Notes: generated by a model not told the origin, from the letters alone. Shown: positions 2,595 to 22,702, counted from the first letter of the stretch. The stretch is 32,000 nucleotides of DNA from an uncultured bacterium (GCA_963699255.1 OY969425.1:1170001-1202000); one strand, 5' to 3'. Program-made: numbers and translations.

Positions 2595-3200
2595 ATGAGC
2601 TCCATTGCATATCAGATAGGCAATTCCTTATATCTTAATATAACCAACCGCTGCACGAATAAGTGCGTGTTCTGCATACGCTACAAGACGAACCTTTTTA
2701 ACAGCAAGCATGATCTGTGGCTTAAGAAAGAACCGACAACGCAGGAGATCATCGAGGCTATCGGCGATCCCGCAAAATACAAGGAGGTGGTCTTCTGCGG
2801 TTACGGCGAACCGCTCATCAGGCTCGACACCGTCATTGAAGTGAGCCGGTGGCTGAAGGATAAGGGCGCAAAAGTAAGGATCGATACCAACGGCCACGGC
2901 AACCTGATACACAAAAGGAATATCGTTCCCGACCTCAAGGGATTTGTCGACTCGATATCTATCAGCCTTAACGCGGTTAACAGGAAAGAATATAATGACA
3001 TATGCCGCCCTGATTTTGGCGAAGATGCTTTTGATGCTATAATCGAATTTACAAAGGAATGCAAAAAATATATCCCGAATGTTGAGCTGACGGTAGTGGG
3101 AATTCCCAAGGTCGACGTGAAAGAAGCAAAGAAGATCGCCGAAGGACTTGGGGTTTCGTTCAGGGTGAGAACTTATTACGAAAAGGATTATATAAAATGA
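2595..3200 (+). CDS. Small radical SAM protein (about 200 aa; resembles the TatD-associated radical SAM subfamily)
   Basis: CTNKCVFC is the CxxxCxxC radical-SAM cluster motif, near the N-terminus after LYLNITNRC. Also has a GYGEP SAM-binding-like motif. The short length fits the small stand-alone rSAM family. Confidence 0.8.
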   Translation: MSSIAYQIGNSLYLNITNRCTNKCVFCIRYKTNLFNSKHDLWLKKEPTTQEIIEAIGDPAKYKEVVFCGYGEPLIRLDTVIEVSRWLKDKGAKVRIDTNGHGNLIHKRNIVPDLKGFVDSISISLNAVNRKEYNDICRPDFGEDAFDAIIEFTKECKKYIPNVELTVVGIPKVDVKEAKKIAEGLGVSFRVRTYYEKDYIK

Positions 3201-3222
3201 GATGCGAGATGAGAGATAAGAA
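3199..3222. repeat. Short copy of the GAGATG-word repeat family filling the rSAM-lpd spacer
   Basis: The sequence gagatgcgagatgagagataagaa spans the rSAM stop and ends at the lpd ATG. It uses the same vocabulary as 9469-9501 and 21125-21157. Confidence 0.5.
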
Positions 3223-4536
3223 ATGAATTATGATATTGCTATTATAGGCTCGGGCCCCGGCGGATATACCGCCGCCATAAGGGCCGCGCAGCTCGGGAAA
3301 AAGGTCGCGTTGATCGAAAAGGGAGATGTCGGGGGATCCTGCCTGAACACCGGCTGCGTCCCGACCAAAGCGCTTTTTTCGTGCGCTAAGCTTTACTCAA
3401 AGATGAAAAGCGCCGAGAAATTCGGGATCAGCGCCGAGAACCTGTACGCGAACTTCCCGAAGATGATCGAGAGGAAGAACAGGATAGTCAACCAGCTGAG
3501 AAAAGGCCTTGAGTATCTTTTCAAAGGCAACAACATCGACCTGGTAAGGGGCGAGGCGAAGCTGAACGGCCCCGAGCAGATAGTGGTCGGCGATCAGGTG
3601 ATAGAAGCGCCGCACATCATACTTGCGACCGGGTCAACGATACCGGACAGACCGCCGTTCAAAATAGACGAGAAAAAGATATTTTCAAGCACGGGGATCC
3701 TCAACCTCGGAACTTTCCCCAAAAACATAGCGATAATAGGAGCCGGCGCCATAGGGATCGAATTCACATCCATATTCAACGCGCTGGGATCTAAGGTTAC
3801 CCTGTTCGAAATGATGCCGCGCATAATGCCCGCCGAAGACGCAGAGCTGTCACAGGCCCTTGAGCAGCTGCTGTCAAGAAAGGGCGTGGAGGTAAGGACA
3901 GGATCAAGCCTTGAGGATGCCGGCGGCTATGAAGCTGTCCTTGTAAGCATAGGCAGGAAGCTGAACACCGAAGGCTTTGAAAGGATCGGCATCGAGCTGA
4001 ACAAAGGAAAAGTCAAGGTGAACGAAAAGATGCAGACGAACATTTCGAATGTCTATGCGATCGGCGACATCGCGGGGAAATACATGTTCGCTCACACGGC
4101 GGCCAGGGAAGGCATAGTCGCGGCTGAGAACGCTTGCGGAAAAAGCGCCAGGATGGACTATACCGCGGTGCCGAAATGCGTTTACTCCCAGCCGGAGATA
4201 GCATCGGCAGGCTTAACGGAAGAAGAAGCAAGGTCAAGCCACAAAGATATTCAGATCGGGAAAGTCCCGTTCAGCGCGTTCTCCAAGTCGCTAATCGACG
4301 ATGAAAGGGACGGATTCGTAAAGTTGGTCGCCGACCGATCGGGAAAGATACTCGGCATACACATATTGGGGAACAACGCTACCGAGATGATCGGCGAAGC
4401 GGCACTGGCGATAAACAAAGGATTGAAGATCGAAGACATGATCTCGACGATCCACGCTCATCCTACCGTTTATGAATCGATGGGCGAAGCCGCCGCCAAT
4501 ACCCTTAAACAGGCTATATCAATATTAAATAAATGA
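3223..4536 (+). CDS. lpd: Dihydrolipoyl dehydrogenase (E3-type pyridine nucleotide-disulfide oxidoreductase)
   Basis: GSGPGGY FAD site, GGSCLNTGCVPTK redox-active disulfide, GAGAIGIEF NAD site and a C-terminal HAHPTVYE His-Glu motif. Confidence 0.88.
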   Translation: MNYDIAIIGSGPGGYTAAIRAAQLGKKVALIEKGDVGGSCLNTGCVPTKALFSCAKLYSKMKSAEKFGISAENLYANFPKMIERKNRIVNQLRKGLEYLFKGNNIDLVRGEAKLNGPEQIVVGDQVIEAPHIILATGSTIPDRPPFKIDEKKIFSSTGILNLGTFPKNIAIIGAGAIGIEFTSIFNALGSKVTLFEMMPRIMPAEDAELSQALEQLLSRKGVEVRTGSSLEDAGGYEAVLVSIGRKLNTEGFERIGIELNKGKVKVNEKMQTNISNVYAIGDIAGKYMFAHTAAREGIVAAENACGKSARMDYTAVPKCVYSQPEIASAGLTEEEARSSHKDIQIGKVPFSAFSKSLIDDERDGFVKLVADRSGKILGIHILGNNATEMIGEAALAINKGLKIEDMISTIHAHPTVYESMGEAAANTLKQAISILNK

Positions 4537-4540
4537 TATT

Positions 4541-4676
4541 GGGAACACGGGAAAGAAGGAATATAGGGATACAGTTTGGGGAAATAGGAAATCGGGAATT
4601 TAGGTTTTCCCTGTATTTCCCAATTCCTTTATCCCTAAACTATATCCCAATATTCCTGTTTTCCATATTTCCAAAA
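4541..4676. repeat. Long imperfect inverted repeat built from GGGAA/GGAAAT words (left arm) and TTCCC/ATTTCC words (right arm) between lpd and lipA
   Basis: Core arms 4557-4604 and 4610-4657 are complementary at 37 of 48 positions in an ungapped hand alignment, or 40 of 48 allowing G:U. Weaker complementarity continues outward. Confidence 0.8.
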
Positions 4677-4693
4677 GGAAATAGTAAATACTA

Positions 4694-5524
4694 ATGCTCC
4701 CTCAATGGTTAATCAAGAAAACTCCTAAACAGGAAAACATTAAAAAGATCAGAAGCCTGATAGGCGACAAGGTGCACACCGTCTGCGAGTCCGCAAAGTG
4801 CCCCAATATAGGCGAGTGCTACAGCAACAGGACCGTCACCTTCATGATCCTTGGGAATATCTGCACAAGAGGATGCGGATTCTGCGCGGTAGAATGCGGC
4901 TCCCCCACCCCGCCTGACGCGGAAGAACCGCGGCGTGTTGCGGACGCGGCAGCGAAGCTCGGATTGAAATACATTGTCGTAACATCTGTCACCAGGGATG
5001 ATCTTCCCGACGGCGGCGCAGGTCAATTCGCAAGAACGATCAATGAATTGCGGTCAGCGATACCGGATGCCAAGATCGAGGTCCTGATACCGGACCTAAA
5101 CGGCAATGAAGATCACTTAAAGATGGTTGTTGACGCGAAGCCGGACGTTTTGAACCATAATATCGAAATGGTACCCAGGCTTTACGCCGTCCTCAGGCCC
5201 AGATCAAATTATCAAACTTCAATAAATGTCCTGAAAGCGGTAAAGAGGATCGATAACGGCACGGTGGTAAAATCCGGTTTTATGCTCGGGCTGGGCGAAA
5301 AAGAGAACGAAATGCTCGATCTGATGAAAGAGCTAAGGTCGGCCGGATGCGACATTGTCACCATAGGCCAATACATCGCCCCTTCACAAGAACACGCAAA
5401 AGTTGTAGAATATATCCATCCGGAAAAATTCGATGAGTACAGGAATTTCGGATTATCCATCGGGATAAAAAAAGTGATCTCCGGACCGTTCGTTAGAAGT
5501 TCATATATTGCAGGGAGCTATTGA
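4694..5524 (+). CDS. lipA: Lipoyl synthase
   Basis: CESAKCPNIGEC auxiliary-cluster motif and CTRGCGFC radical-SAM motif. Length and the C-terminal RSSY motif are typical of LipA. Confidence 0.93.
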   Translation: MLPQWLIKKTPKQENIKKIRSLIGDKVHTVCESAKCPNIGECYSNRTVTFMILGNICTRGCGFCAVECGSPTPPDAEEPRRVADAAAKLGLKYIVVTSVTRDDLPDGGAGQFARTINELRSAIPDAKIEVLIPDLNGNEDHLKMVVDAKPDVLNHNIEMVPRLYAVLRPRSNYQTSINVLKAVKRIDNGTVVKSGFMLGLGEKENEMLDLMKELRSAGCDIVTIGQYIAPSQEHAKVVEYIHPEKFDEYRNFGLSIGIKKVISGPFVRSSYIAGSY

Positions 5525-6690
5525 TGGAGGAAGCGGAAAGACTACAGAAACTACCAACCTATATCTTCGCAAAGCAGGATAAGTTGAAGGCCGAAGCAAG
5601 GAAACACGGCGCGGACCTGATAGATCTCGGTCTGGGAAGCCCGGACGTACCCCCGCCGAAAGAAGTTATCGATGAAATGGTCGCGGCGCTCAAAGACCCT
5701 GCCAATCACAGGTATCCCCCGTTCGATGGCTCACAGGAATTCAGGCACGCCATTGTTAACTGGATGAAACGGCAGTACAACGTCCATGTGAGCGAAGAAG
5801 AAGTTGTCCCTTTGATAGGTTCAAAAGAAGGAATTGTACATCTGCAGTTAGCTTACCTGAATCCCGGCGATACAACTCTTGTGCCGATGCCCGCGTATCC
5901 GGCCCATTTCAATGGCGCGATACTTGCAGGCGCCGAGCCCGTGGTCATTCCTACAACGGAAAAAACTGATTTTATCCCGAACCTTAAAATAATCGATGAG
6001 GCGATCGCAAGACGGGCAAAAATGCTTTTCCTGTCCTATCCGACCAATCCTACCGGCGCCACTGTCCCCCTATCATTTTTCGAGGAAGCCGTTGCTTTCG
6101 CGAAGAAATACGATCTTCTGCTTGTGCACGATTTCGCATACGCGGAGCTTTACTTTGACGGGCATAAGCCGCCGAGCATCCTTACGGTCCCCGGAGCAAA
6201 GGACGTCGCGGTCGAGTTCCATACTCTCTCGAAGACATTCGGCATGGCGGGGTGGAGATGCGGATTCGCCGTCGGGAACAATAAATACATTGAATCGCTA
6301 AGAAAGATCAAGACCAACATGGATTATGGACTTTTCTCGGCGATCCAGAAAGCTTCGATCAAGGCTTTGACCATAAACAACGGTTATATAGACAATGTTA
6401 GAGCGACCTATCAGAAAAGAAGGGACCTTGTCATAGAAAGGCTTAAAGATCTCGGATGGAACATACAGAAGCCGAAAGGCGCCATGTACGTTTGGCTCCC
6501 GGTACCCAGAGGCTTTAATTCATACGACTGGATGATCTATTTATTGGAAAAAGCAGGCGTTGTGGTAACGCCCGGCATCGCTTTCGGAGAGCTCGGAGAG
6601 GGATACGCCAGGATATCATTGATCGACAACGAAACAAATCTTAACAGAGCTTTTGACAGGATGAAGAAAGCCGGGGTCAGGTATGGATAG
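5524..6690 (+). CDS. Class I/II PLP-dependent aminotransferase (aspartate/alanine/LL-DAP aminotransferase-like)
   Basis: N-terminal LPTYIFAKQDKLK...DLIDLGLGSPD, then NPTG and the SKTFGMAGWRCG PLP-lysine motif. The ATG at 5524 overlaps the lipA TGA (TGATG) and has an AGGGAG SD 6 nt upstream. The ORF track's TTG at 5521 is less likely. Confidence 0.85.
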   Translation: MEEAERLQKLPTYIFAKQDKLKAEARKHGADLIDLGLGSPDVPPPKEVIDEMVAALKDPANHRYPPFDGSQEFRHAIVNWMKRQYNVHVSEEEVVPLIGSKEGIVHLQLAYLNPGDTTLVPMPAYPAHFNGAILAGAEPVVIPTTEKTDFIPNLKIIDEAIARRAKMLFLSYPTNPTGATVPLSFFEEAVAFAKKYDLLLVHDFAYAELYFDGHKPPSILTVPGAKDVAVEFHTLSKTFGMAGWRCGFAVGNNKYIESLRKIKTNMDYGLFSAIQKASIKALTINNGYIDNVRATYQKRRDLVIERLKDLGWNIQKPKGAMYVWLPVPRGFNSYDWMIYLLEKAGVVVTPGIAFGELGEGYARISLIDNETNLNRAFDRMKKAGVRYG

Positions 6691-7684
6691 GCCCATCATT
6701 GCCGTAACAATGGGGGACGCTTCCGGCATCGGCCCGGAAATAATAGTCAAGGCTTTCCAGAACGCTGAGATACAGAACGTCGCGCGCCCTATCGTCATCG
6801 GCGACGCGCGCATAATGAAAGCCGCCCTTAAATTCGCAAAAGGCCAGCCGCCCGAGATAAACGCGGTAAAAAGCATTAAAGAAGCGAGGTTCTTAAGGGA
6901 CCTGATAGATGTGCTTGATCTCGGGAACCTTGAACCGTCAAAGGTTAAGACAGGCCAGATATGCGCGCCGTGCGGGAAAGCCGCGATCGAATATCTGGAA
7001 AAAGCCATAGCGCTCGCGATCAACAATGATGTTGACGCTATCGCCACGGCTCCGATAAACAAGGAAGCCATACGCAAAGCGGGCTACAAGTTCCCCGGCC
7101 ACACGGAGCTGCTCGCAAAAAGGACCAAGTCCAAGAATTACGCCATGATGTTCGTATCCGACCCGTTCTGGGTGATGCTTGTGACAACGCACCTTCCGCT
7201 GAGCAAAGTAAGCAAAGCGGTGACCAAAAAGAAAGTGCTCCAGACAATAAAGCTCGCTAACGAGTTCCTTTACAACCTGAGGGGAAAGAAGCCCAAGATA
7301 GGGGTCGCGGGCCTTAATCCCCACGCGGGCGAAGGCGGAATGTTCGGCAACGAGGAGAAAAAAGCCATAAAACCCGCGATCGAAGAGGCCCGGAAGATGG
7401 GAATAAACGTTAAAGGACCGATATCGCCTGACGGGATATTTTATCTTGCGAATGTCGGGCTGTTCGATATCGTGATCGCCATGTATCACGACCAGGGTCT
7501 CATCCCGCTCAAGCTTCTTTCCTTCAACAAGTCCGTTAATGTAACTGTGGGGCTGCCGATCATAAGGACATCCGTTGACCACGGGACCGGATTTGATATA
7601 GCGGGTAAAGGATGGGCGAACCCGACAAGCCTGATAGAAGCCATTAAAGTAGCCGCGCATTTCGCCAAGTCAAAAAAGCAGTAG
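6683..7684 (+). CDS. pdxA: 4-hydroxythreonine-4-phosphate dehydrogenase
   Basis: GDASGIGPEI, TAPINKEA, GHTE, NPHAGEGG, HDQGLIPLK and RTSVDHGT motifs. Overlaps the upstream gene by 8 nt. Confidence 0.9.
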   Translation: MDRPIIAVTMGDASGIGPEIIVKAFQNAEIQNVARPIVIGDARIMKAALKFAKGQPPEINAVKSIKEARFLRDLIDVLDLGNLEPSKVKTGQICAPCGKAAIEYLEKAIALAINNDVDAIATAPINKEAIRKAGYKFPGHTELLAKRTKSKNYAMMFVSDPFWVMLVTTHLPLSKVSKAVTKKKVLQTIKLANEFLYNLRGKKPKIGVAGLNPHAGEGGMFGNEEKKAIKPAIEEARKMGINVKGPISPDGIFYLANVGLFDIVIAMYHDQGLIPLKLLSFNKSVNVTVGLPIIRTSVDHGTGFDIAGKGWANPTSLIEAIKVAAHFAKSKKQ

Positions 7685-8487
7685 TGATCCGGGAAATCCT
7701 CCGAAAATCCGATATCAGGCCGAATAAAAGCTTTGGTCAGCATTTTTTGTCCGATAAAAATATACTGAACAAGATCGCTGATGCCGCAGTCATCACAAAG
7801 GACGATATTGTGCTTGAGGTCGGCACAGGCATAGGGACACTCACCAGGCCTCTCGCCTCGAAAGCAGGTTTCGTCGTGACCGTTGAAGTTGATAAAAAAC
7901 TGATCTCTCCTGCAAAGGAATCCCTTAAGGGATTTAAAAATATAGATATCATCAATGACGATATTATGAAGTGCAACATCCCGAAAATAATGGATGAGCA
8001 TCCTGGCTTTAAGCACAGGAAAGTCGTCGCCAATGTCCCCTACTATATTACAACCCCGCTTATATCCCTGCTCATCGGTTCAAAAGCGAAGTTCGAAACG
8101 ATAGTAATAACGATACAAAAAGAAGTAGCCGAGCGCATTATAAGCAAACCGGGAAATAAGCGGTACGGTTCATTAACGGTATTCGTTAACTATTACACCA
8201 GACCTGAAATAGTATTCGATATCCCCGCCTCCGCCTTTGTCCCTCCTCCGGAAGTCGACTCGGCGGTAATAAGGCTGACCGTTCTGGATAAACCTTCCGT
8301 AAAAGTAAAAGATGAAAAGCTGTTTTTCAGGATCGTCCGCGCGGCGTTCAATCAAAGGCGGAAAATGCTGAAGAACGCCCTTGAAGCCGCAAAGATCGAC
8401 TGGCCAGCCGGAACCGATATCGACGGCAAAAGACGCGGAGAAACCCTTTCAATAGAGGAATTCGCGAAGCTGGCCAATCTCTTCTGA
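7684..8487 (+). CDS. rsmA: 16S rRNA (adenine1518/1519-N6)-dimethyltransferase
   Basis: FGQHFL, the VLEVGTGIGTLT SAM-binding motif and NVPYYITTP. The GTG start overlaps the pdxA TAG by 1 nt. Confidence 0.9.
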   Translation: MIREILRKSDIRPNKSFGQHFLSDKNILNKIADAAVITKDDIVLEVGTGIGTLTRPLASKAGFVVTVEVDKKLISPAKESLKGFKNIDIINDDIMKCNIPKIMDEHPGFKHRKVVANVPYYITTPLISLLIGSKAKFETIVITIQKEVAERIISKPGNKRYGSLTVFVNYYTRPEIVFDIPASAFVPPPEVDSAVIRLTVLDKPSVKVKDEKLFFRIVRAAFNQRRKMLKNALEAAKIDWPAGTDIDGKRRGETLSIEEFAKLANLF

Positions 8488-8497
8488 CCTCACTCGC

Positions 8498-8526
8498 TTG
8501 AAGCATATCCATAATTCTGATAATAT
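8498..8526 (+). promoter_or_regulatory. Candidate sigma70-type promoter for the mdh-fumarase operon
   Basis: TTGAAG (8498-8503), a 17-nt spacer ending in TGa, then TAATAT (8521-8526). It lies about 30 nt upstream of the SD-led mdh start. Confidence 0.35.
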
Positions 8527-8556: not shown

Positions 8557-9477
8557 TTGAAAGTATCGGTTTTCGGCGCGGGGAATGTGGGAGCGGAGGT
8601 CGCAAGGCGGATAGTTGAGAAAAAACTTGCTGATGTCGTTCTTGTGGACATTGTCGAAGGCATACCGCAGGGAAAAGCACTTGATATCCTTCAATCTGGT
8701 CCCGTAGAGGGATTTGACTGCAATATCAAAGGCACAAATGATCCGGCAGAGATCGAAAGTTCAGACATTGTTGTGGTAACCGCTGGCCTCGCAAGAAAAC
8801 CCGGCATGAGCAGGGATGACCTCCAGGCCGCGAACGCCAGGATCGTAAAGGGAATAACTGAAAATATCAAGAGGTCCGCGCCGAGATCAATATTAATAAT
8901 GGTCACAAATCCGCTGGATGTAATGACATATCTTGCCTGGAAAGTAAGCGGGTTCGAGAAACACAGGGTTTTCGGGATGGCCGGCGAACTAGATACTGCA
9001 AGGATGATAACTTTCATATCAATGGAAACGGGTGTTCCCGCGTCAAAAATAAAAGCCATGGTCCTGGGCGGACACGGGGACCTTATGGTGCCCCTTATCA
9101 GCCAGACAAGCGTGAACGGCAAACCCCTTCTCTCTTTGATGCCGAAGCAGAAGATCGATGAGATAGTAAAGCGCACAGCGAACGGAGGCGCTGAAATAGT
9201 CAATCTCCTGAAAACTGGAAGCGCATACTATGCCCCGTCCGCTTCAGCGGTTAAAATGGTCGAAGCGGTCATCAGGAACAAAGAATCCGTCATCCCCAGC
9301 GCCGTGATACTGGACGGCGAATACGGCCTGAAGGATGTCTGCATCGGCGTCCCGGCAAAGATCGGAAAAAAAGGCATCGAGAAGGTCGTTGAATTAAAGA
9401 TAACTGACGAGGAAAAAGCGATACTTGTAAAATCGGCCAATTCCGTTAAGGAGAATATCTCCAAATTAGAGATGTGA
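8557..9477 (+). CDS. mdh: Malate dehydrogenase (LDH-like MDH family)
   Basis: N-terminal KVSVFGAGNVG Rossmann motif, AGLARKPGMSRDDL (the Arg is typical of MDH specificity) and GGHGD. I place the start at TTG 8557, 5 nt after AAGGAGG (8545-8551). The ORF track's 8527 start would add 10 residues before the Rossmann fold. Confidence 0.9.
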   Translation: MKVSVFGAGNVGAEVARRIVEKKLADVVLVDIVEGIPQGKALDILQSGPVEGFDCNIKGTNDPAEIESSDIVVVTAGLARKPGMSRDDLQAANARIVKGITENIKRSAPRSILIMVTNPLDVMTYLAWKVSGFEKHRVFGMAGELDTARMITFISMETGVPASKIKAMVLGGHGDLMVPLISQTSVNGKPLLSLMPKQKIDEIVKRTANGGAEIVNLLKTGSAYYAPSASAVKMVEAVIRNKESVIPSAVILDGEYGLKDVCIGVPAKIGKKGIEKVVELKITDEEKAILVKSANSVKENISKLEM

Positions 9478-9512
9478 GATGCGAGACGAGAGATGTGAAA
9501 TGAGAGAGATCG
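9468..9512. repeat. GAGATGTGA-word module (two direct GAGATGTGA copies 21 nt apart) spanning the mdh stop and the fumarase start
   Basis: GAGATGTGA occurs at 9469-9477 and 9490-9498. The segment 9469-9501 matches 21125-21157 at 27 of 33 positions by hand alignment. Confidence 0.75.
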
Positions 9513-10342: not shown

Positions 10343-10882
10343 GTGCAGAAGATCACGACCCCATTAACTGATAAAGTGATCAAATCGCTTAAAGCGGGCG
10401 ATGAAGTCCTGATCTCCGGAGTGATCTATACCGCAAGGGATGCTGCCCACAAAAGACTTGTCCTTGATATCAAACATCCTCCGCTTAACCTGAAGGACCA
10501 GATCATCTATTACTGCGGACCTACGCCCGCGATGCCCGGGCGTCCTGTCGGGTCTGCCGGCCCCACAACCAGCGGCAGGATGGATGGATTTACCGCCCCC
10601 CTGCTGAAAACCGGCCTTAAAGGCATGATAGGAAAAGGCCCAAGGTCAAAGGAAACAAGGGAGCTTATTAAAAAGCACAAGGCCGTTTATTTTGTGGCTA
10701 CGGGCGGTGCAGGCGCCCTGCTTGCGAGGCATATCAGAGCATCACAGGTCGTCGCTTACCCCGATCTTGGCCCGGAAGCTATACACAGATTCGACGTGCT
10801 GGATTTTCCGGTGATCGTGGCCGACGATATCAAAGGCCATGATATTTTTGAAGAAGGGATGAAGAAATACAGGAAAAAATGA
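10343..10882 (+). CDS. Class I fumarate hydratase, beta subunit (C-terminal domain type)
   Basis: GVIYTARDAAHKRL, GPTTSGRMD and GMIGKG motifs. GTG start directly after the alpha-subunit stop, with an AAAGGAGG SD upstream. Confidence 0.85.
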   Translation: MQKITTPLTDKVIKSLKAGDEVLISGVIYTARDAAHKRLVLDIKHPPLNLKDQIIYYCGPTPAMPGRPVGSAGPTTSGRMDGFTAPLLKTGLKGMIGKGPRSKETRELIKKHKAVYFVATGGAGALLARHIRASQVVAYPDLGPEAIHRFDVLDFPVIVADDIKGHDIFEEGMKKYRKK

Positions 10883-11883
10883 CGCCATATAAATCACAAT
10901 ACACAAATCACAAATTACAAACAAATTACAATGCACAAATCACAAATAATTATTTTAGTAATTGTATATTGTTTATTGTTTGTTTATTGTTTATTGTCAT
11001 TTGTATATTCCCATCATATTCTTTTGCTGAAACAAAACAATATGATGGGGTTTGGTTCCTCGGCTTCAATCTTCACACGAAGCTTTTCGGTAATGATGAC
11101 GGCAGGCAGGTGCGCCGTGCCGTAACAACGGCCATAGACAGGGAAAAGATCGCGAAAAAAATAATCGGCGACGATGCCGTCCCCGTCGGCGTGATCCCTC
11201 CCGGAATGGAAGGATACGATCCATCGCTTACCCCGTATCCCCATGACTATGCGCTTGCAAAAAAGCTGATGACGAACGCGGGATATCCTTTGTACGACAA
11301 GCGTTTGAAGCATATATCACTGCTCATGACCGACGGGGAAAAAACAAGATTGATCGTCGATGAAATAAAAAAGGACCTTATTAACATAGGTTTTGACATT
11401 ACGACAAGGGTAGTGAAATACTCGAACACAAAAGAATGGGAAAGGGAACTCATGTCCGGCAACTACAACATGTTCGTAATGGGATATAAAGCCGGGAGCG
11501 TCGGCGAGATATTCATCGCCGACAAATCCACCGGCATCTTCCACACTTTTACCTGCTTTAAAAATACGACCAATGAAGCCGACCAGCAATATTTTGACAG
11601 ATACAGCGACGCCGTATCTTCAGGATTTTCTCCGTGTACGATATGCAAACCACAGCCGGAGAAGGCGCCTACGACGCTTGAACTGGTGCGCCCGCTTTTT
11701 TATCGCGATGGGATCGCGAACGCTGCGTACTTCCAGAATATAAGAGTGGATAATCTTATTGAAGAGCTCTCAACTCTGGATGAAAAGCTTATAGCGTCAA
11801 GAAAAGACAAATTCGAGGAGATCGGACGCATTCTTTATGATGACCTGCCCGTAGTACCTCTTTTCTATATTACGAGGCTATGA
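10879..11883 (+). CDS. Membrane-anchored or secreted, truncated family-5 solute-binding-protein-like protein with an embedded His/Cys (Ada-like Zn) motif
   Basis: The ATG overlaps the fumarase-beta stop (ATGA). A hydrophobic segment ILFIVCLLFIVICIFPSYSFA is followed by SBP_bac_5-like sequence (FLGFNLH..., VRRAVTTAIDREKI, GVIPPGMEGYD, AKKLMTNAGY) that lacks the usual N-terminal lobe. FHTFTCFK...GFSPCTICKP resembles the Ada-type H/C...CxxC zinc motif. The exact start is uncertain. Confidence 0.7.
   Translation: MTPYKSQYTNHKLQTNYNAQITNNYFSNCILFIVCLLFIVICIFPSYSFAETKQYDGVWFLGFNLHTKLFGNDDGRQVRRAVTTAIDREKIAKKIIGDDAVPVGVIPPGMEGYDPSLTPYPHDYALAKKLMTNAGYPLYDKRLKHISLLMTDGEKTRLIVDEIKKDLINIGFDITTRVVKYSNTKEWERELMSGNYNMFVMGYKAGSVGEIFIADKSTGIFHTFTCFKNTTNEADQQYFDRYSDAVSSGFSPCTICKPQPEKAPTTLELVRPLFYRDGIANAAYFQNIRVDNLIEELSTLDEKLIASRKDKFEEIGRILYDDLPVVPLFYITRL
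10891..11008. repeat. Long imperfect palindrome of CACAAAT/ACAAATTACAA words (left arm, nearly G-free) and ATTGT/TTTATTGT words (right arm, nearly C-free)
   Basis: Left arm 10891-10950, centre about 10951-10958, right arm 10959-11008. 10892-10932 matches the reverse complement of 20120-20160 at 36 of 41 positions. 10921-10945 matches 19992-20016 at 23 of 25. Confidence 0.8.
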
Positions 11884-13681: not shown

Positions 13682-13688
13682 GGACTAA

Positions 13689-16997: not shown

Positions 16998-17022
16998 ATT
17001 GGTCTGATTATAGCAGATAGAT

Positions 17023-17044
17023 ACCCGCTACTGAAGTGTCGGGT
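17023..17044. repeat. Degenerate GC-rich hairpin (ACCCG...CGGGT) of the same type as the 30486-30535 hairpins
   Basis: The sequence acccgctactgaagtgtcgggt has a 5-bp outer stem plus inner AC/GT pairs. It lies in the 54-bp mpg-apgM spacer. Confidence 0.4.
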
Positions 17045-17051
17045 TCCATTA

Positions 17052-17588
17052 TTATATTTTCGACACATATTTATTCCCTTTTATATAATAACGGTATAAT
17101 TTATTGGATGCTTTTGAGAGCCCTATCCTTCGGGCAGAAACAATTCGAAGTTTTTCGGGCTTTCCTTCCGCAATGACTAGATTTCCTTTTGTGAGATCCG
17201 CCCGATTGAAATGTTTGTCGATCCTGAGAGCCCTGGTGAGCTTCCCCGGGCCGTTCGTCAGCAGCTTAATGCCGCTGATAGGCTCAAGCGACCTGATCAA
17301 TACCGCGCCAGCCCTGCCGATTTTTTCAGTAACCGCATTCAGGCAAAAATGGTTGCCGTAGATGAAGTATACATACGCGTGGCCCGGTTCCTCGAACATA
17401 GGGGCGCAGCGCGGAGTCTTCCCCCTGAAAGCGTGGCTTGCGGGATCTTTCTGGAAGTAGGCTTCCGTCTCGACAATCTTACCGATCAGTTTGCGGGCGC
17501 CGATCTTCCTTACCAGATATTTGCCCAGCAGCTGCCTCGCTACAACACCGGTGTTCCTGCTGTAGAACGATCTTGAAAGGACCCTCAT
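17052..17588 (-). CDS. DNA-3-methyladenine glycosylase (MPG/AAG family)
   Basis: ARQLLGKYLV, IVETEAY, DPASHAFRGKTPR, GHAYVYFIYGNHFCLN and NGPGKL motifs. Confidence 0.88.
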   Translation of the reverse strand: MRVLSRSFYSRNTGVVARQLLGKYLVRKIGARKLIGKIVETEAYFQKDPASHAFRGKTPRCAPMFEEPGHAYVYFIYGNHFCLNAVTEKIGRAGAVLIRSLEPISGIKLLTNGPGKLTRALRIDKHFNRADLTKGNLVIAEGKPEKLRIVSARRIGLSKASNKLYRYYIKGNKYVSKI

Positions 17589-18185
17589 TTACAATCTTGG
17601 GGTTTTTGTTCTTGGCGCAGGCGTAACGTTTTCCTTTGACGGAATTGCAGGGATAACTTCTTCCTGGATCCTCTGGATGTTTTGCTGGACAAAATCTATC
17701 TTCGGGAACATCCCGAAAATGGACAGATAAGACTTTGTAAGGGTTGGAACGGAGATCTTCTTAGAGACGGATACCGAAAAAATATCTTTAATTCCCGTCG
17801 AAAAAGGGAGCATCAGGCATATCTGGATAGCGATGCCGACTATCAGTATCCCCTGCATAAGTCCCAGCAGCGCGCCGCCAAGCGATTCCACCACGCCGAT
17901 GAAAGATACCTTCACCAGCTTCATTATATAGCCGACGAACAGCTCAAGGATCGCGAACGATATCACCCAGAATATTATGAAAGTGACCGCGTATACAGAG
18001 GTGTCCTGAACTTTTAAGAACGGCATGATCGAAGTTGAAAGCGACCTGTACATCTGTCCCGAGAAAAATATGGCAAGAAGGACCGCGAAAATATCCAGGA
18101 ACGTTTTCATTACCCCGCGCTGTACGCCGTAGAAGACAAAGGCAGCAACCGCGATCACCGCGACAACATCGATCCAGTTAATCAT
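17589..18185 (-). CDS. cvpA: CvpA family membrane protein
   Basis: N-terminal MINWIDVVAVIAVAAFVFYGVQRG plus 4 predicted TM segments. Zero-nt junctions with purE upstream and mpg downstream. Confidence 0.8.
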   Translation of the reverse strand: MINWIDVVAVIAVAAFVFYGVQRGVMKTFLDIFAVLLAIFFSGQMYRSLSTSIMPFLKVQDTSVYAVTFIIFWVISFAILELFVGYIMKLVKVSFIGVVESLGGALLGLMQGILIVGIAIQICLMLPFSTGIKDIFSVSVSKKISVPTLTKSYLSIFGMFPKIDFVQQNIQRIQEEVIPAIPSKENVTPAPRTKTPRL

Positions 18186-18641
18186 TTATATCTTAGCTCC
18201 CTTCTCCATCTTGTGCTTTAAAGCTTTAAGCGCGGTTTTCAGTTTGGGATATTTAAGGCTCAATATCTGCGCCGCGAGGATAGCCGCATTCTTTGCGCCG
18301 CCTATCGCGACGGTCGCGACCGGAATTCCCGAAGGCATCTGTACTATAGAGTAAAGCGAATCGAACCCCGACAGCGACTTTGTTTCGATCGGAACTCCGA
18401 TGACCGGAAGAATGGTATTTGCCGCAACAACACCGGGAAGATGAGCCGCTCCTCCAGCCGCGGCGATCACAAGATCATACTTTGAAGCGGCGGCAGAGGC
18501 TATCTTTGAAACTTTCTTTGGATTCCTGTGGGCAGAAGCGACTATCAGATCAAAAGGGATCTTGAATTGGGCAAGAAGTTTCTTGGTCCCATCCATTTGA
18601 GGGATGTCGGAGCCGCTACCAAGAATAACTAATATTCTCAT
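18186..18641 (-). CDS. purE: 5-(carboxyamino)imidazole ribonucleotide mutase
   Basis: ILGSGSDIPQM, VASAHRNP and AAGGAAHLPGVVAA motifs. 151 aa. Confidence 0.92.
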   Translation of the reverse strand: MRILVILGSGSDIPQMDGTKKLLAQFKIPFDLIVASAHRNPKKVSKIASAAASKYDLVIAAAGGAAHLPGVVAANTILPVIGVPIETKSLSGFDSLYSIVQMPSGIPVATVAIGGAKNAAILAAQILSLKYPKLKTALKALKHKMEKGAKI

Positions 18642-18657
18642 AAAATAAATTCTTCCT

Positions 18658-18695
18658 CAATTGTTCATTGTGAAATTGTTAATTGTGTCATTGCC
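18658..18695. repeat. Half-element (T/G/A-word arm) of the CACAAAT/ATTGTG family between the IPMS-like stop and the purE start
   Basis: The sequence caattgttcattgtgaaattgttaattgtgtcattgcc shares the 11-mer ttgttcattgt with 20107-20117. No complementary arm lies nearby. Confidence 0.5.
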
Positions 18696-18697
18696 TA

Positions 18698-19930
18698 TTA
18701 GGGAGCGACCGTCATTATCTTTCTTGCCTGTTCAGGATATTTTGCGACGAACAGGAGCTCTCTTTTCGTCAACGGTTTTTGCGTGTGTACATTGGCATAT
18801 CTGACCAGCTCGAGCACCCTTTCCGCTTCCGCGTCGTCCTTGAATACGACCTCAAGGTTGCCGAAAACATTCCTGAACCCTTTTATGCCGCTGTATTCGC
18901 CGACCGTTATCATTCGCCCCGTCTCAACATATTCGGGCTGGCCCCGTCCCAGTTCTTCGTACTCATAGAGTTCATAGTTCCTTCTGTCCTTCAGCGCGCC
19001 GTCGGCATGAATGCCGGACTCATGGGCAAAAGCGTTCGCTCCCACGCCCACCTGATTGATCGGGATGGGTATCCTGAAAGCATAAGAGGCATAATTCGCT
19101 ATCTCCCATGATCTTAAAAGGTCGACGCCTTCCGGATAATAGCCCTTGCCGGTCAAACCGCTTGAATACTTCAAGGCCAGCAGGACCGACAGCATGTCGG
19201 CATTTCCCGCCCGCTCACCGACCCCGTTCACGGTCGTGTTTATATACGCATCCTGGCCCGCATCAACAGCGCCTCTCGCCCCTTCAATGGAGCACGCAAC
19301 AGCCATTCCCAGATCATTATGGCAGTGAAGTTCTATGGGCATTTTCGTTTTGGTCGCAAGTTCATATATCCTGTCATATATCGTTTTCGGATCATCAGCG
19401 CCAAGAGTGTCGCAGTACCTTAATCGTTTTGCTCCCGCGGCTTTTCCGGCCTGGCCGAAACTGACAAGAAAATCCATGTCGGAACGGGAAGCATCTTCAG
19501 CATTTATGCCGACCGTTTCCGCCCCGTAGCCATATGCCGCTTTTACGGCCTCCTCTATCTTATTGATGACCTGTGTCTTGCTCATTTTTCCCAGGAATTT
19601 GCTCTCAAGCATTATGTTCGACGTTGACATCGAAAGGTTCAGGTGCTTGATCTTTGGGACCAGGTTGAAAGCGAGGTCAACATCTTTCTTTATCCCCCTG
19701 CACCAGCCTTCGAGCCTTATGGGTTTAAGTGCGCCCATTTCGGCAAGTTCAAGGTTCGCATTAAGATAATTCGTTTCGTGCTTCGTGAAAGGGAATCCGA
19801 ATTCCGACTGAAAGATCCCCATCTCGTTCAGCATCATATTTATGATCGTCTTTTCAAGCTTCGCCAGACCGAGCCGCGATGTCTGCACCCCGTCCCTGTT
19901 CGTTACGTCAATTATATAAACTTTCGGCAT
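18698..19930 (-). CDS. 2-isopropylmalate / homocitrate / citramalate / Re-citrate synthase family protein (HMGL-like TIM barrel, no LeuA regulatory domain)
   Basis: VTNRDGVQT, ELHCHNDLGMAVA, NGVGERAGNA and AHESGIHADG motifs. At 410 aa it is too short to carry the LeuA C-terminal allosteric domain. AGGAG SD. Confidence 0.85.
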   Translation of the reverse strand: MPKVYIIDVTNRDGVQTSRLGLAKLEKTIINMMLNEMGIFQSEFGFPFTKHETNYLNANLELAEMGALKPIRLEGWCRGIKKDVDLAFNLVPKIKHLNLSMSTSNIMLESKFLGKMSKTQVINKIEEAVKAAYGYGAETVGINAEDASRSDMDFLVSFGQAGKAAGAKRLRYCDTLGADDPKTIYDRIYELATKTKMPIELHCHNDLGMAVACSIEGARGAVDAGQDAYINTTVNGVGERAGNADMLSVLLALKYSSGLTGKGYYPEGVDLLRSWEIANYASYAFRIPIPINQVGVGANAFAHESGIHADGALKDRRNYELYEYEELGRGQPEYVETGRMITVGEYSGIKGFRNVFGNLEVVFKDDAEAERVLELVRYANVHTQKPLTKRELLFVAKYPEQARKIMTVAP

Positions 19931-19966
19931 TAATATGATCTCCTTCTAATTGTAAACTGTGAGGCC

Positions 19967-19995
19967 ATTATAACTTATCAAAAAAAAAATTACAA
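19967..19995 (-). promoter_or_regulatory. Candidate promoter for the IPMS-like/purE/cvpA/mpg gene string
   Basis: The minus strand reads TTGTAA (19995-19990), a 17-nt spacer containing T10, then TATAAT (19972-19967). An AGGAG SD and the ATG at 19930 follow. Confidence 0.4.
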
Positions 19996-20160
19996 ATTAC
20001 AATACACAAACCACAAGCAATGATGTCACCCTGAACTTGTTTCAGGGTCTGAAAATGCAGATGCCGAAATAAATTCGGCATGACAGTTGGGACAGGCGGG
20101 TTTGTTTTGTTCATTGTATATTGTGATTTGTTTGTGGTTTGGGATTTGTATATTGTGATT
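19980..20160. repeat. Composite element: CACAAAT-word arm (19990-20023), structured core with two 8-bp hairpins (20024-20085), and ATTGTG-word arm (20101-20160)
   Basis: Core hairpins are accctgaa/ttcagggt (20028-20048) and atgccgaa/ttcggcat (20061-20081), bracketed by tgtca/tgaca. The arms match the 10.9-kb copy at 36 of 41 and 23 of 25 positions. Read on the minus strand, the structure is followed by a U10 tract (19989-19980). Confidence 0.75.
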
Positions 20161-21084
20161 TTATCTGTATTCTTCCGATGACTGATAATACCTGAACCAG
20201 ATATTGACTATGCCGATCATCACGATAAGCAACAGGACGGAGGTCGCCGCTCCAGATCCGAAGTCCCACCTCTGGAAGGAATTCCTGAATATGTCCGTCA
20301 TCATGAGATCGCCCCATTGGCCGGGGAAGCCGGCGCCAAAACCGAACATCATGATGACAATATTAAATGAATATACGTTATATATAAGGCCGAAAAGTAT
20401 AAGGATGGCCCAAACTGGCCTCAGGAGCGGGAAAGTGATCATCCAGAATTTCCTCCAGGGCGACGCCCCGTCAATATCCGCCGCTTCATAGAGCTCGTCA
20501 GGTATCGTCTGAAGGCCCGCAAGAAGCATCAGCATTGAAAGCGGCCAGTATCTCCAGACGGTCGGGATGATTATCGCCCATAGGGTATTCGGCCCGAGAA
20601 GCCAGAAAGGTTTTGATGGAAGAATGTGCAGAACATCAACAAGAACAATATTTATGATCCCGATATTCTTCTGCCACATGAATCCCCAGAGAAGCCCGGT
20701 AACATACGTTGGCACTATCCACGGGAACAGGAAAAGCGTTCTGATGAGCGATCGGCCCCTGAATTTCCTGTTCACCATGAGCGCCACCATAAGCCCGACC
20801 CACAGCGTTCCAAGCGTTACGACTATCGTGTATATAACGGTATTCCTGACAGCTTCCAGAAGCCCGATCCTCATGGGGCTTTGCGCGTTCACCAGCACAT
20901 TATAATAATTTTGGAACCCTACGAAAGGCGCGAGAAGATAGCTGCCCAGCGTGAACTGATCAAGCCTCAGGAAAGACATGTAAACCCCCTGGACGATGGG
21001 CAGGAAATGAAGGAAGAACATCGCTATCCCCGTGGGAAGCAGGAACATGTAAGCGAATTTATTCTTTTTAATTTGTTTCCACAT
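20161..21084 (-). CDS. Carbohydrate ABC transporter permease (MalF/UgpA-type, CUT1 family)
   Basis: Six hydrophobic segments and an EAA-loop motif (ELYEAADIDGASPWRKFWMITFPLLRP). Confidence 0.88.
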   Translation of the reverse strand: MWKQIKKNKFAYMFLLPTGIAMFFLHFLPIVQGVYMSFLRLDQFTLGSYLLAPFVGFQNYYNVLVNAQSPMRIGLLEAVRNTVIYTIVVTLGTLWVGLMVALMVNRKFRGRSLIRTLFLFPWIVPTYVTGLLWGFMWQKNIGIINIVLVDVLHILPSKPFWLLGPNTLWAIIIPTVWRYWPLSMLMLLAGLQTIPDELYEAADIDGASPWRKFWMITFPLLRPVWAILILFGLIYNVYSFNIVIMMFGFGAGFPGQWGDLMMTDIFRNSFQRWDFGSGAATSVLLLIVMIGIVNIWFRYYQSSEEYR

Positions 21085-21123
21085 CAGGTCAGGAATTATA
21101 CCTTATAAAAGCATGGAAATGCA

Positions 21124-21205
21124 AGAGATGTGAGACGCGACGTGCGAGATGTGAAAAAGATCTCATCTCACATCTCTCATCTCACATCTCTCATCTCACA
21201 TCTCC
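21124..21205. repeat. GAGATGTGA module (two direct copies) facing three perfect tandem 14-bp repeats (TCTCATCTCACATC) that contain its reverse complement
   Basis: GAGATGTGA occurs at 21125-21133 and 21146-21154. The tandem units are 21161-21174, 21175-21188 and 21189-21202, and each junction yields TCACATCTC. The block sits between the divergent permease and SBP promoters. Confidence 0.85.
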
Positions 21206-21214
21206 GGTCCGGCC

Positions 21215-21243
21215 TTGCCCCTTAGATGAAATTTTGATATAAT
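21215..21243 (+). promoter_or_regulatory. Candidate promoter of the sugar SBP gene
   Basis: TTGCCC (21215-21220), a 17-nt spacer ending in TGa, then TATAAT (21238-21243). AAGGAGG (21266-21272) lies 6 nt before the GTG at 21279. Confidence 0.5.
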
Positions 21244-21278
21244 AACGTCGGTTTTCTAAAGACAAAAGGAGGAAAATC

Positions 21279-22613
21279 GTGCGCAAATATCTAGCTCTGC
21301 TGCTCATCGTATTATTCTCAATTTCCATTATGGGATGCGGGAAAGCAAAGGAAGAACCCGGAAAAGCCACTGTGCAGATGTGGGTCATGCCAAACTCCCT
21401 GGAGCCCATAGCGGATATAGAAGCTCTCCTGAAAGATTTTGAGAAAGATAACCCGGGAATAAAAGTAAAGGTAACATCGGTTGACTGGGGCGCGGCCTGG
21501 ACCAAGATAACAACGGCGGCAACCTCGGGAGATGTCCCGGACCTTGTTCAGATAGGTTCCACGTGGGTCGGCTCAATCTCCGGCATGGGCTCTCTGCTGG
21601 ACCTGAAGGACAGGGTCGCGGAACTTGGAGGAAAGAACGTGTTCGTTCCCGCCGCGTGGAAATCGACCGGCATAGAGGGATCCGGTCAGGTCACCGCGAT
21701 CCCGTGGTTCATGGATGCGAGGGCGATGTATTACAGAACGGATGTCCTGAGGGAAGCAAAAGTCGACCCAAAAGAGCTTGATAACTGGCAGTCATTTGGA
21801 AAAGCGCTTAAGAAGATCAGTGACGCAAAAGTATCGATCGACGGCCTTGATATTTCACCGCTAGGAATATCAGGCAAGAACGACTGGAACGTGATACACA
21901 ACCTTGCTCCGTGGATATGGGGAGCCGGCGGAGACTTTATCGGAAAAGACAGGAAAAGCTCAGTGATAAATTCAAAGGAATCGCTGAACGGGATCTTGTA
22001 TTACATAAGTCTCGTGAAGAACGGTTATGTTCCCATCGAATATCTTGAATTGAACACGGCCCAGGTGTCGTCGAATTTCAATAACGGCTCCTGTGCCATA
22101 TATTTTGACGGACCCTACGAAGTGAAAACCCTGACAACGCCTCCGGGACAGGGAGGAGCAGCCGGCTCGCTTACTTCAAGGAATTTCGCCGTCGCTCCTT
22201 ATCCGAGCGGGCCCAGAGGAAGGGTCGCCTTTATCGGCGGGTCGAACCTGGGGATATTCAAGCTTGCCAAGCATCCGAACGAAGCTTTCAAGGTCATTCA
22301 ATATTTGACCTCAAAACAGTCTCAGGTAAGTTACGCGAAAACCACGGGATTCCTTCCCGCGAGGCGCGACGCGTTCGACGACCCGTTCTTCTCCGCCGAC
22401 CCGAACAGGCGGGTGTTCAAGGAAGCGGTGCTGTATGGAAAGACCTATCCGTGCATTCCCGCATGGGGCCTTCTTGAGCCGGTCCTCACAAGGCGGTTCG
22501 GGATAATGTGGGAATACGTGACGAACACGTTCGGGGACGGTTTCAAACAGTCGGAAATAAAAAAGCAGCTTGATCTTGCAAAGATCGAAATAGATGGAGT
22601 ATTAAAGCAATGA
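21279..22613 (+). CDS. Carbohydrate ABC transporter substrate-binding lipoprotein (family 1 SBP)
   Basis: Signal peptide with a lipobox (LFSISIMGC). SBP_bac_1-like sequence throughout (PDLVQIGSTWV, IPWFMDARAMYYR, GGSNLGIFK). Confidence 0.88.
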   Translation: MRKYLALLLIVLFSISIMGCGKAKEEPGKATVQMWVMPNSLEPIADIEALLKDFEKDNPGIKVKVTSVDWGAAWTKITTAATSGDVPDLVQIGSTWVGSISGMGSLLDLKDRVAELGGKNVFVPAAWKSTGIEGSGQVTAIPWFMDARAMYYRTDVLREAKVDPKELDNWQSFGKALKKISDAKVSIDGLDISPLGISGKNDWNVIHNLAPWIWGAGGDFIGKDRKSSVINSKESLNGILYYISLVKNGYVPIEYLELNTAQVSSNFNNGSCAIYFDGPYEVKTLTTPPGQGGAAGSLTSRNFAVAPYPSGPRGRVAFIGGSNLGIFKLAKHPNEAFKVIQYLTSKQSQVSYAKTTGFLPARRDAFDDPFFSADPNRRVFKEAVLYGKTYPCIPAWGLLEPVLTRRFGIMWEYVTNTFGDGFKQSEIKKQLDLAKIEIDGVLKQ

Positions 22614-22702
22614 CCAATTTGCAATGTCAAATTAATGGCCAATGTCCAATCACTCAATTGGAAATTAATTTGGATTTGGTCATTGGTAATTGGTGATTTA
22701 AA
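22611..22702. repeat. Word-level inverted repeat: three CCAAT words (left) and three ATTGG words (right), filling the SBP-glmS spacer
   Basis: CCAAT starts at 22614, 22639 and 22646. ATTGG starts at 22657, 22682 and 22689, each offset by exactly 43 nt. There is a local hairpin tccaat/attgga (22645-22662), and aaattaat is duplicated at 22629 and 22662. Confidence 0.7.

Follow-up and report, generated by a model that had tools for sequence, protein, structure and literature searches.

STRR-like word hairpins in bacterial gene spacers have their arms in common with PF05635 gene cassettes

The long imperfect palindromes of the window (the whole stretch of DNA that was analysed, 32,000 nucleotides) are best explained as STRR-like word hairpins that lack a gene and are either MITE-like relatives or eroded half-sites of cassettes carrying a PF05635 (IVS-protein) gene, a reading to which we give a probability of about 60%. 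The arms that they have in common with these cassettes suggest where repeats of this kind come from. The arrays change by slippage, one arm being a perfect 14-mer repeated three times, and the tests that we ran gave no support for a selected structured-RNA role.

The palindromes noticed in the sequence-only reading are real, and the analysis confirmed five long imperfect hairpins together with three single arrays in the window. Their arms are made of tandem 7-nt words (8-nt words in one family), and one arm is always G-free and the other C-free. Compared with 200 dinucleotide shuffles, all hairpins fold better on both strands (z -7.9 to -2.2), the weakest case being the minus strand of the last one (22606-22700), which 7 of the 200 shuffles equal. 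The observation that one arm nearly lacks one nucleotide and its partner the complement was borne out by 44 of 45 three-letter hairpins, with G rare in one arm and C rare in the other. The arms are AT-rich and 30-80 nt long, and their autocorrelation is highest at lags 7 (0.51), 14 (0.44) and 21 (0.40), most other lags giving about 0.25-0.33. A strict count gives 59 period-7 tracts and a lax one 165, versus 0-20 for lags 5, 8, 10 and 11, and periods 7, 14 and 21 predominate among the non-triplet periods reported by TRF.

The 1.77-Mb genome (G000) contains about 115 word-repeat loci in an ungapped repeat scan, 83 of them between genes as called by a crude ORF caller. They belong to at least six word families, each with its own vocabulary and 9-29 loci. 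Inverted-repeat clusters with a score of at least 16 number 125 in the genome and 5 after a 30-nt block shuffle. The statement that most spacers hold such elements is true locally (8 of the 12 spacers of at least 20 nt in the flagged stretch) but not genome-wide, where the share is 10-16%. The dispersed families were recovered, and the identities that had been aligned by hand between their copies hold approximately. Copies have non-periodic landmarks (GGGAAT family) and multi-word strings in common, and the similarity between copies ends at the element boundaries. No near-identical copies were found in the genome, the best pairs being 77-87% identical, and these therefore give no proof of recent movement. 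As had been supposed, the elements are unlike REP elements: the REP-like GGAACC... hairpins of this genome are a separate family, and the word hairpins are longer and more AT-rich.

Two junctions of the window are occupied by single arrays of GAGATGN words. The first (3201..3222, plus strand), a member of a 29-locus family, fills the junction between a radical-SAM gene and lpd, as judged from the sequence, and directly adjoins the TGA stop of the upstream gene (3198-3200). In G002, one of two syntenic relatives, this junction is an ATGA overlap, and in the other, G001, it holds a different array (GTAAYGA). The second (9466..9499, plus strand) lies at the junction of mdh and fumA, includes the mdh stop (9475-9477) and ends directly 5' of the likely fumA start (9500); here G002 has an ATGA overlap and G001 a REP-like doublet. 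A hairpin of the same family (21124..21204, unstranded) lies in a divergent spacer, with arms at 21124-21154 and 21161-21204 that are complementary at 81% over 31 nt in several registers (z -5.8). Its left arm is degenerate and its right arm is a 14-mer repeated 3.1 times with a 100% match (TRF), a recent slippage expansion. Between lpd and lipA the spacer is filled by a GGGAAT-family hairpin (4539..4675, unstranded) with a C-free arm (4539-4604) and a G-free arm (4610-4675), both of 66 nt and 74% complementary, and with z-scores of -7.5 and -7.9 against dinucleotide shuffles. It is one of nine copies with the landmark GGRATAYRGTTTRGGG in both arms. The family, described earlier by the word GGGAAAT, is real, but its word period is 8. 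G002 has nothing at this junction, and G001 has a GC-rich element.

The ACAAAT-family hairpin at 10887..11006 (plus strand), with a G-free arm at 10887-10932 and a C-free arm at 10961-11006, lies within the 5' end of an ORF (10879-11883). In the frame of this ORF, the A/C arm reads as a polar tail, and the hydrophobic core of a signal peptide comes from the T/G arm. At the equivalent place G001 and G002 have a word hairpin made of different words, which in both reads as a signal peptide ending in SFA|xxKEYDG. In contrast to the earlier claim, this element is probably no spacer and most likely codes the signal peptide of an SBP-like gene, which is conserved in the two relatives. A second ACAAAT-family hairpin (19986..20162, unstranded) has 35-nt arms (19986-20020 and 20128-20162) that are 80% complementary (z -5.2), and a REP-like hairpin doublet is nested in its 107-nt loop at about 20024-20088; at this site G002 has a spacer of 80 nt from which the array is absent. 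A single C-free array (18655..18697, minus strand) occupies a 56-nt spacer between two minus-strand genes, and the matching junction in G002 is only a few bases wide. It belongs to the AATTAACAAT/TTGTTAATTGT family, and its words are TTGTTAATTGT/AATTAACAA, not CACAAAT, an assignment in which the earlier list of vocabularies had to be corrected. Finally, a CCAAT/AATGACCAAT-family hairpin (22608..22692, unstranded; z -2.7 and -2.2), a member of a 23-locus family, fills the spacer between an SBP gene and glmS with two 36-nt arms (22608-22643 and 22657-22692) that are 75% complementary, and its first word includes the TGA stop of the upstream gene (22611-22613). Gene-less copies sit at non-orthologous gene junctions, which in a relative are tight stop/start overlaps. 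The array at 3201-3222 has AATGA-like strings on its two sides, and in G002 the empty sites are ATGA overlaps; the comparison with G001 and G002, both too diverged for boundaries, gave no clear target-site duplication.

The link to the cassettes comes from the rest of the genome. It has ten PF05635 genes, of which nine are bracketed by inverted word arms. The cassette at 716334-716787 has arms of GAGATGN words and that at 1000736-1001218 arms of ACAAAT words, so that two of the four window vocabularies double as cassette arms; the latter cassette also has a 22-mer in common with the hairpin at 10887-11006. The cassettes lie outside the window, and none of its eight elements holds an ORF of the PF05635 family. 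Across 29 genomes of the phylum, arms of 7- or 8-nt words bracket 26 of 29 PF05635 genes, versus 3 of 24 lipA controls bracketed, none of these by a word array. In the AATTAACAAT family some gene-less copies retain the GC segment and the AT-rich, promoter-like stretch of the cassette, and others the GC hairpin beside the right arm. A search of this genome gave no cassette for the GGGAAT or CCAAT family. In G000 and G001 alike, the GAGATGN cassette is found 5' of one and the same SSB-like gene (SSB-like proteins 83% identical, PF05635 proteins 74%); with its gene intact, this cassette has kept its place since the two sister genera diverged.

PF05635 (TIGR02436) is the 23S rRNA intervening-sequence protein family, an Avd-like four-helix bundle with no known catalytic activity. 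The cassette gene matches only four-helix-bundle/Avd-like models; no transposase match was found for it and no transposase was tied to the word arms. All eight PF05635-positive genomes in the sample, of which two belong to other classes, have word hairpins, at densities of 0.7-4.5 per 100 kb, and none was found in 923 kb from six PF05635-negative genomes. The compared genomes are kin, and this co-occurrence is therefore no statistical test. Two genomes also speak against the link: G047 is PF05635-negative yet has heptamer arrays, and G004 has GAGATG arrays with no PF05635 match, although its sequence is only 81% complete.

The supposed lineage specificity applies to the vocabularies. In this genome the GGGAAT landmark is present 14 times, and among 40 relatives a single copy turned up, in one genome; GAGAYGN arrays were found in this genome, four genomes of the same family and one other genome. 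It does not apply to the design, which recurs in the eight PF05635-carrying genomes and matches the STRR and heptamer repeats. The STRRs of filamentous cyanobacteria are tandem 7-bp units, several per genome, in intergenic positions, and those between the co-transcribed hupS and hupL are complementary and hairpin-forming, with proposed roles in transcript stability, translational coupling or termination (PMC2670836). Similarly, our elements have a tandem 7-nt unit with several unit sequences, many intergenic loci and complementary arrays able to form hairpins. They differ in their words, in the 8-nt family, in the strict G-free/C-free arms and in having arms in common with PF05635 cassettes. 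As the original definition is tied to heterocystous or filamentous cyanobacteria, they would count only as STRR-like if the host is of another group. Heptamers are the commonest long simple-sequence repeats in many bacteria, with polymerase slippage as the proposed cause (as summarised in PMC4679880). The TAACTGA repeats of Beggiatoaceae, Cyanobacteria and Bacteroidetes are nearly all direct, with one inverted set, and a single word dominates the described Beggiatoaceae genome (MacGregor 2015, PMC4679880). They resemble ours in the 7-nt period, the patchy phylogenetic spread and the intergenic arrays that often end just 5' of start codons (compare 3201-3222 and 9466-9499), whereas our arrays are typically inverted pairs, with many vocabularies. 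Our literature search found no link between heptamer-word arms and PF05635 cassettes.

The cassettes themselves, in which an inverted-repeat stem encloses a PF05635 gene, resemble the 23S rRNA intervening sequences of Leptospira, Coxiella burnetii, Xanthomonas and others (S23p). Those that contain an ORF are regarded as selfish and are excised from the RNA by RNase III (PMC4990558). The window elements have the long stem of terminal inverted repeats, but they are gene-less, their stems are word arrays, and they are flanked by protein-coding genes, not by a 23S rRNA helix; the window gave no rRNA match. Similar to MITEs, they are short, dispersed, multi-copy and gene-less with inverted ends, and these ends (GAGATGN, ACAAAT) and also inner remnants (AATTAACAAT family) are found in a longer, gene-carrying partner. 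In contrast to MITEs, no transposase can be recognised in this partner, there are no evident target-site duplications, and the ends consist of internal repeats that change by slippage. REP/BIME elements with their Y1 (RAYT) transposase are likewise abundant intergenic palindromes at operon junctions, but REPs are short and GC-rich, and the single Y1 transposase of this genome is flanked by GGAACC... hairpins, not by word hairpins.

It is rather unlikely that the hairpins are selected RNA elements (bidirectional terminators, RNase III sites or stabilisers that uncouple or protect neighbouring cistrons), with their likeness to the cassettes secondary. The strong folding on both strands, the position of most hairpins at gene 3' ends or operon junctions, the T-rich arm that comes after a GC-rich tip hairpin in some families and the roles proposed for cyanobacterial STRR hairpins (PMC2670836) would agree with such a function. 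Divergent spacers contain fewer hairpins with the G-free arm first (an A-rich arm, then a U/G-rich arm) than expected (1 of 29 versus 5.8, binomial p about 0.013), a hint that some constraint or function operates at the 3' ends of genes, but those with the C-free arm first occur there at the expected rate (7 of 30). Covariation in the 9-copy family was no better than in column shuffles (pairing 89.4% versus 87.5%), and 253 of 500 shuffles had at least as many pairs changed on both sides. Counted along the direction of transcription, G.U mismatches are as common as A.C mismatches, with no strand bias, and most mismatches are non-wobble. With regard to Rho-independent termination, the stems have no U-tract after them, terminator-like matches stay at the shuffle level, and the Rfam search gave no family match. 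The orthologous junctions of the syntenic relatives are empty, as tight ATGA overlaps (G002), or hold an unrelated element (G001), which also argues against the structured-RNA role put forward earlier.

Slippage purely in place, with heptanucleotide repeats growing from local seeds and becoming palindromic by template switching, without dispersal, we consider improbable. It would account for the perfect 7/14-nt arrays (TRF), including 21161-21204, and for the great difference in purity that the two arms of one hairpin may show; it is also in line with the prevalence of the heptamer class of repeats in bacteria (PMC4679880) and with the 17-nt spacer between SBP and glmS in G002, which looks like one word of the array in G000. 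Distant copies, however, have two-arm non-periodic landmarks, multi-word strings and inner non-repeat parts in common, with similarity ending at the element boundaries; one vocabulary is found at 29 loci and again in sister genera, and one gene family is almost always bracketed by arms across the phylum. Lower still we place iteron-like arrays of double-stranded binding sites for a chromosomal protein of nucleoid organisation, replication or partition, in which the hairpins would be irrelevant. Each word does consist of a conserved 4-5-nt core with variable positions, the arms hold the family consensus without compensating each other, and both orientations occur, as expected of sites read in the duplex. 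Against this stand the many unrelated vocabularies in a single genome, their turnover between genera, the absence of positional conservation and the strict G-free/C-free asymmetry, which better fits single-strand recognition or avoidance of self-folding.

If the word hairpins are relatives of PF05635 cassettes, they would spread by a process without a transposase, with recombination between arms and some activity of the four-helix-bundle protein as candidates, and they would persist mainly at sites that tolerate insertions. Transcribed elements would form long mismatched double-stranded RNA that may be cut by RNase III like the rRNA intervening sequences; the gene for this enzyme, rnc, is present in the genome. 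Some copies may have been put to use by the host, for instance as a signal peptide or as the context of a start codon. Tentatively, we propose that the PF05635 protein might be the trans-acting partner, which would read the 7-8-nt words in single-stranded form and maintain or spread the hairpin cassettes without a classical transposase. The arms would then be G-free or C-free, and unable to self-fold, because the protein recognises the words on a single strand. If this is true, the STRRs of cyanobacteria, the heptamer repeats of bacteria and the rRNA intervening sequences would all belong to a single class of mobile element.

The main palindromes that the sequence-only reading had described were recovered by a repeat search and are real. 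They are word hairpins, that is inverted arrays of 7-8-nt words, at 4539-4604/4610-4675 (66-nt arms, 74% complementary), 19986-20020/20128-20162 (35-nt arms, 80%), 21124-21154/21161-21204 (31-nt arms, 81%, several registers), and 22608-22643/22657-22692 (36-nt arms, 75%). The whole-genome inverted-repeat scan added 10887-10932/10961-11006, and three unpaired single arrays are located at 3201-3222, 9466-9499, and 18655-18697. Each window hairpin folded better than its dinucleotide shuffles (n=200), with fold z scores from -7.9 to -2.2 and with the two strands about equal; the CCAAT element was the weakest, 7 of 200 shuffles folding as well on its minus strand. The shuffle control that had been proposed as a first way to refute the observation is thereby answered. 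The observation of word palindromes is confirmed, and the identities that had been aligned by hand were about right when realigned. The array at 18658 had been counted with the CACAAAT elements but belongs to the AATTAACAAT family. That most spacers hold such elements is true within 3199-22702 (8 of the 12 spacers that are 20 nt or longer) but not genome-wide, where only 10-16% of spacers do (gene calls from our own ORF caller).

The source genome (G000) is a single contig of 1.77 Mb. An ungapped scan found 125 inverted-repeat clusters of score at least 16, versus 5 in a shuffle that kept composition in 30-nt blocks. In 45 of the 125 the arms nearly lack one base, and the proposal that the other arm lacks its complement was borne out in 44 of these 45 three-letter hairpins, with G missing from one arm and C from its partner, and never A/T. 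Arm autocorrelation peaked at lags 7, 14, and 21 (0.51, 0.44, and 0.40), most other lags giving about 0.25-0.33. TRF likewise returned arrays of period 7 (n=93), 14 (n=67), and 21 (n=17), with control periods 8, 10, 11, and 13 giving 12, 7, 11, and 7, and lag-7 tracts numbered 59 (strict) or 165 (lax) versus 0-20 at lags 5, 8, 10, and 11. Merging hairpins and arrays gave about 115 loci, which were grouped by shared 9-mers into families as Louvain communities, single-linkage k-mer clustering having percolated into one component. The families are GAGATGN (29 loci; window members 3199/3201-3222, 9466-9499, and 21124-21204), CCAAT/AATGACCAAT (23 loci; 22608), GAGATTAGAG (20 loci; none in the window), AATTAACAAT (14-19 loci, gathered by k-mer selection; 18655), ACAAATCACA or ACAAAT (11 loci; 10887 and 19986), and GGGAAT, whose words are 8 nt long (9 loci; 4539). 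A generic search pattern (G-free run, then C-free run) was rejected as unspecific at 20-28 nt and insensitive at 32 nt.

The suggested role as a structured RNA received no support from the available tests of spacer class, mismatch type, covariation, and Rfam and terminator matches. The share of loci in co-directional, convergent, and divergent spacers roughly follows how common each spacer class is. In co-directional spacers most arm mismatches are neither G.U-type nor A.C-type, and no excess of G.U over A.C was found (16 vs 20 in plus-strand operons, 34 vs 26 in minus-strand operons). The nine GGGAAT copies could be aligned well and share a non-periodic landmark, GGRATAYRGTTTRGGG, which both arms carry in mirrored form. 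Their pairing was 89.4% vs 87.5% in column shuffles, their covariation counts were matched by 51 to 253 of 500 shuffles, and the RNAalifold covariation term was slightly unfavourable; the GGGAAT arms match since each retains the family words, not via compensating changes between copies. No Rfam family was matched at gathering thresholds, and terminator-like consensus matches were at shuffle level. One hint towards selection on RNA structure is the scarcity of G-free-arm-first hairpins in divergent spacers (1 of 29, with 5.8 expected); C-free-first hairpins are not rare there (7 of 30). Hairpins that start with the purine-rich arm read alike on both strands, so that arm order is a property of the family and not of orientation, and arm order relative to transcription was discarded as a signal because it is uninformative for such hairpins.

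The window was compared with two same-family relatives, G001 and G002, which are syntenic with it over at least 20 genes (LipA about 76% identical); a metagenome scan found no relative closer than 76% identity, and a separate look-up of contigs encoding LipA gave no exact record. The radical-SAM/lpd junction holds a GAGATGN array in G000, a different heptamer array (GTAAYGA) in G001, and an ATGA overlap in G002. ATGA overlaps are also found in G002 at lpd/lipA, where G000 has the GGGAAT hairpin and G001 a GC-rich double hairpin, and at mdh/fumA, where G000 has a GAGATGN array and G001 a REP-like doublet of the same family as doublets in the window. At SBP/glmS the CCAAT hairpin of G000 faces a 17-nt spacer in G002, and G001 carries a word hairpin at one junction that is tight in both other genomes. 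Since the same junctions are empty or differently filled, elements are gained and lost at gene junctions, separately in each lineage. The G000 arrays at 3198-3226, 4534-4696, and 9475-9502 separate gene pairs that share stop/start bases in G002, and they supply the stop or adjoin the start; translational coupling has probably been lost at these three junctions.

The position of 10887-11006 is the exception: G000, G001, and G002 each carry a word hairpin there, with different words, and when translated it reads as a signal peptide in every case (window 10879-11040 and the corresponding stretches of G001 and G002). A polar tail rich in K/N/Q is encoded by the A/C arm and the hydrophobic core by the T/G arm, with SFA|xxKEYDG of an SBP-like protein following. 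The element is predicted to be coding and co-opted. The ORF (10879-11883) has only the C-terminal half of the SBP_bac_5 domain (profile positions 195-348 of 368) together with an Ada-type zinc-binding domain, an odd architecture that is kept in G001 and G002.

G000 has 10 genes of PF05635, the 23S rRNA intervening-sequence (IVS) protein family (also TIGR02436, four-helix-bundle, and weakly Avd), and inverted word arms surround 9 of them. The cassette at 716334-716787 has GAGATGN arms, with the start codon within the last words, and that at 1000736-1001218 has ACAAAT arms and a 22-mer in common with the window element at 10887. Across 29 phylum genomes, arms of 7- or 8-nt words flank 26 of 29 PF05635 genes, each gene with its own word, while 3 of 24 lipA controls were bracketed, none of them by word arrays. 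Gene-less copies of the AATTAACAAT family still have inner parts of the cassette: one has a GC segment and an AT-rich promoter-like stretch, both 5' of the gene in the cassette, and others have the small GC hairpin that lies 3' of the gene. By their sequence, these copies look like internal deletions of the cassette. G000 and G001 share the position of the GAGATGN cassette, upstream of one SSB-like gene (SSB-like proteins 83% identical, PF05635 proteins 74%). The PF05635 gene is therefore a long-standing resident there, under purifying selection, and its long residence fits the GAGAYGN arrays in four same-family genomes. The GGGAAT landmark was found only in G000, plus a single match in one relative.

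Both SSB-type genes of G000 adjoin word arrays: the paralogue at 716811-717212 is directly downstream of the GAGATGN cassette, as it is in G001, and the rpsF-ssb pair (1441618-1442708) lies between inverted GAGATTAGAG-type arrays. These adjacencies may be coincidental. The only GxxExxY gene (TIGR04256, PD-(D/E)XK-like; G000:C1:496627-497209) is about 1 kb from a PF05635 cassette and has a 31-nt inverted repeat of its own around it. A 175-aa gene at G000:C1:951952-952780 lies between the inverted heptamer arms AAGTAAGAAGTGAGAAG and CTTCTAACTTCTT; it had no NCBIfam match, and its N-terminus presumably resembles an ORF6N/KilA-N domain, so cassettes may also carry cargo other than PF05635.

The same scan was run on DNA sampled from further genomes of this phylum. 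Word hairpins were present in 8 of 8 PF05635-positive genomes (six of the class of G000, two of other classes) at 0.7-4.5 per 100 kb, with excess lag-7 tracts. None were found in six PF05635-negative genomes (923 kb in total), all from outside the class of G000. Lag-7 tracts were at background in 5 of these 6; G047, a PF05635-negative congener of positive genomes, carries heptamer arrays with their word. This co-occurrence among related genomes is supportive rather than a test.

Best copy pairs in G000 are only 77-87% identical, with no recent burst of copies seen, and similarity stops at the element boundaries. Six near-perfect 7/14-nt arrays, including the right arm 21161-21204 (a 14-mer x 3.1, 100% match, opposite a degenerate left arm), indicate that slippage is active. 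Doublets of REP-like hairpins belonging to other families (GTCACCCTGAAC... and GGAACCGCGACT...) occur at 20024-20088, 28256-28363, and 30483-30550, and the loop of the 19986-20162 word hairpin encloses one of them. The single Y1 (IS200-type) transposase of G000 (G000:C1:1290400-1291600), is flanked by GGAACC... REP-like hairpins, and this unit as a whole lies inside a GGGAAT-type hairpin with the purine-word arm GGAAGAAAGGAAAAAGGGGAATTTGGG and the pyrimidine-word arm TTTTCCTCTTTTCCATTTTCC. Other elements thus seem to land in the loops of word hairpins.

The design is of a known kind. It matches the STRR heptamers of cyanobacteria, whose hairpins, between hupS and hupL and at other sites, lack an established function (PMC2670836), and likewise the broader class of heptanucleotide repeats and the TAACTGA arrays, which stop shortly before start codons (PMC4679880). 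The gene-carrying cassette corresponds to the ORF-containing 23S rRNA intervening sequences, which are considered selfish elements and which RNase III excises (PMC4990558). The claim of a lineage-specific family therefore stands in that the families are real and their vocabularies lineage-restricted, but not for the design itself. We favour, with a probability of roughly 0.6, the explanation that the word elements are gene-less, MITE-like relatives of the IVS-protein cassettes. They would occupy gene junctions where insertion is tolerated and evolve by slippage. The orthologous junctions, the cross-genera cassette, the apparent internal deletions, and the presence/absence sampling are supportive of this explanation.

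For annotation, these elements are inserted in operon junctions that overlap tightly in relatives. They can contribute a stop codon, the context of a start, or even a signal peptide, and start-codon calling is misled by them. To our knowledge, neither an origin nor a function has been assigned to heptamer (STRR) repeats in the decades since they were described, and the same holds for an explanation of the four-helix-bundle protein encoded in rRNA intervening sequences; in the literature searched, no paper was found that joins heptamer repeats to PF05635. A genome with STRR-like repeats and PF05635 genes together, paired through shared arms, a cross-genera cassette, gene-less copies with cassette parts, and co-occurrence among the sampled genomes, makes this pairing concrete and open to a bench test.
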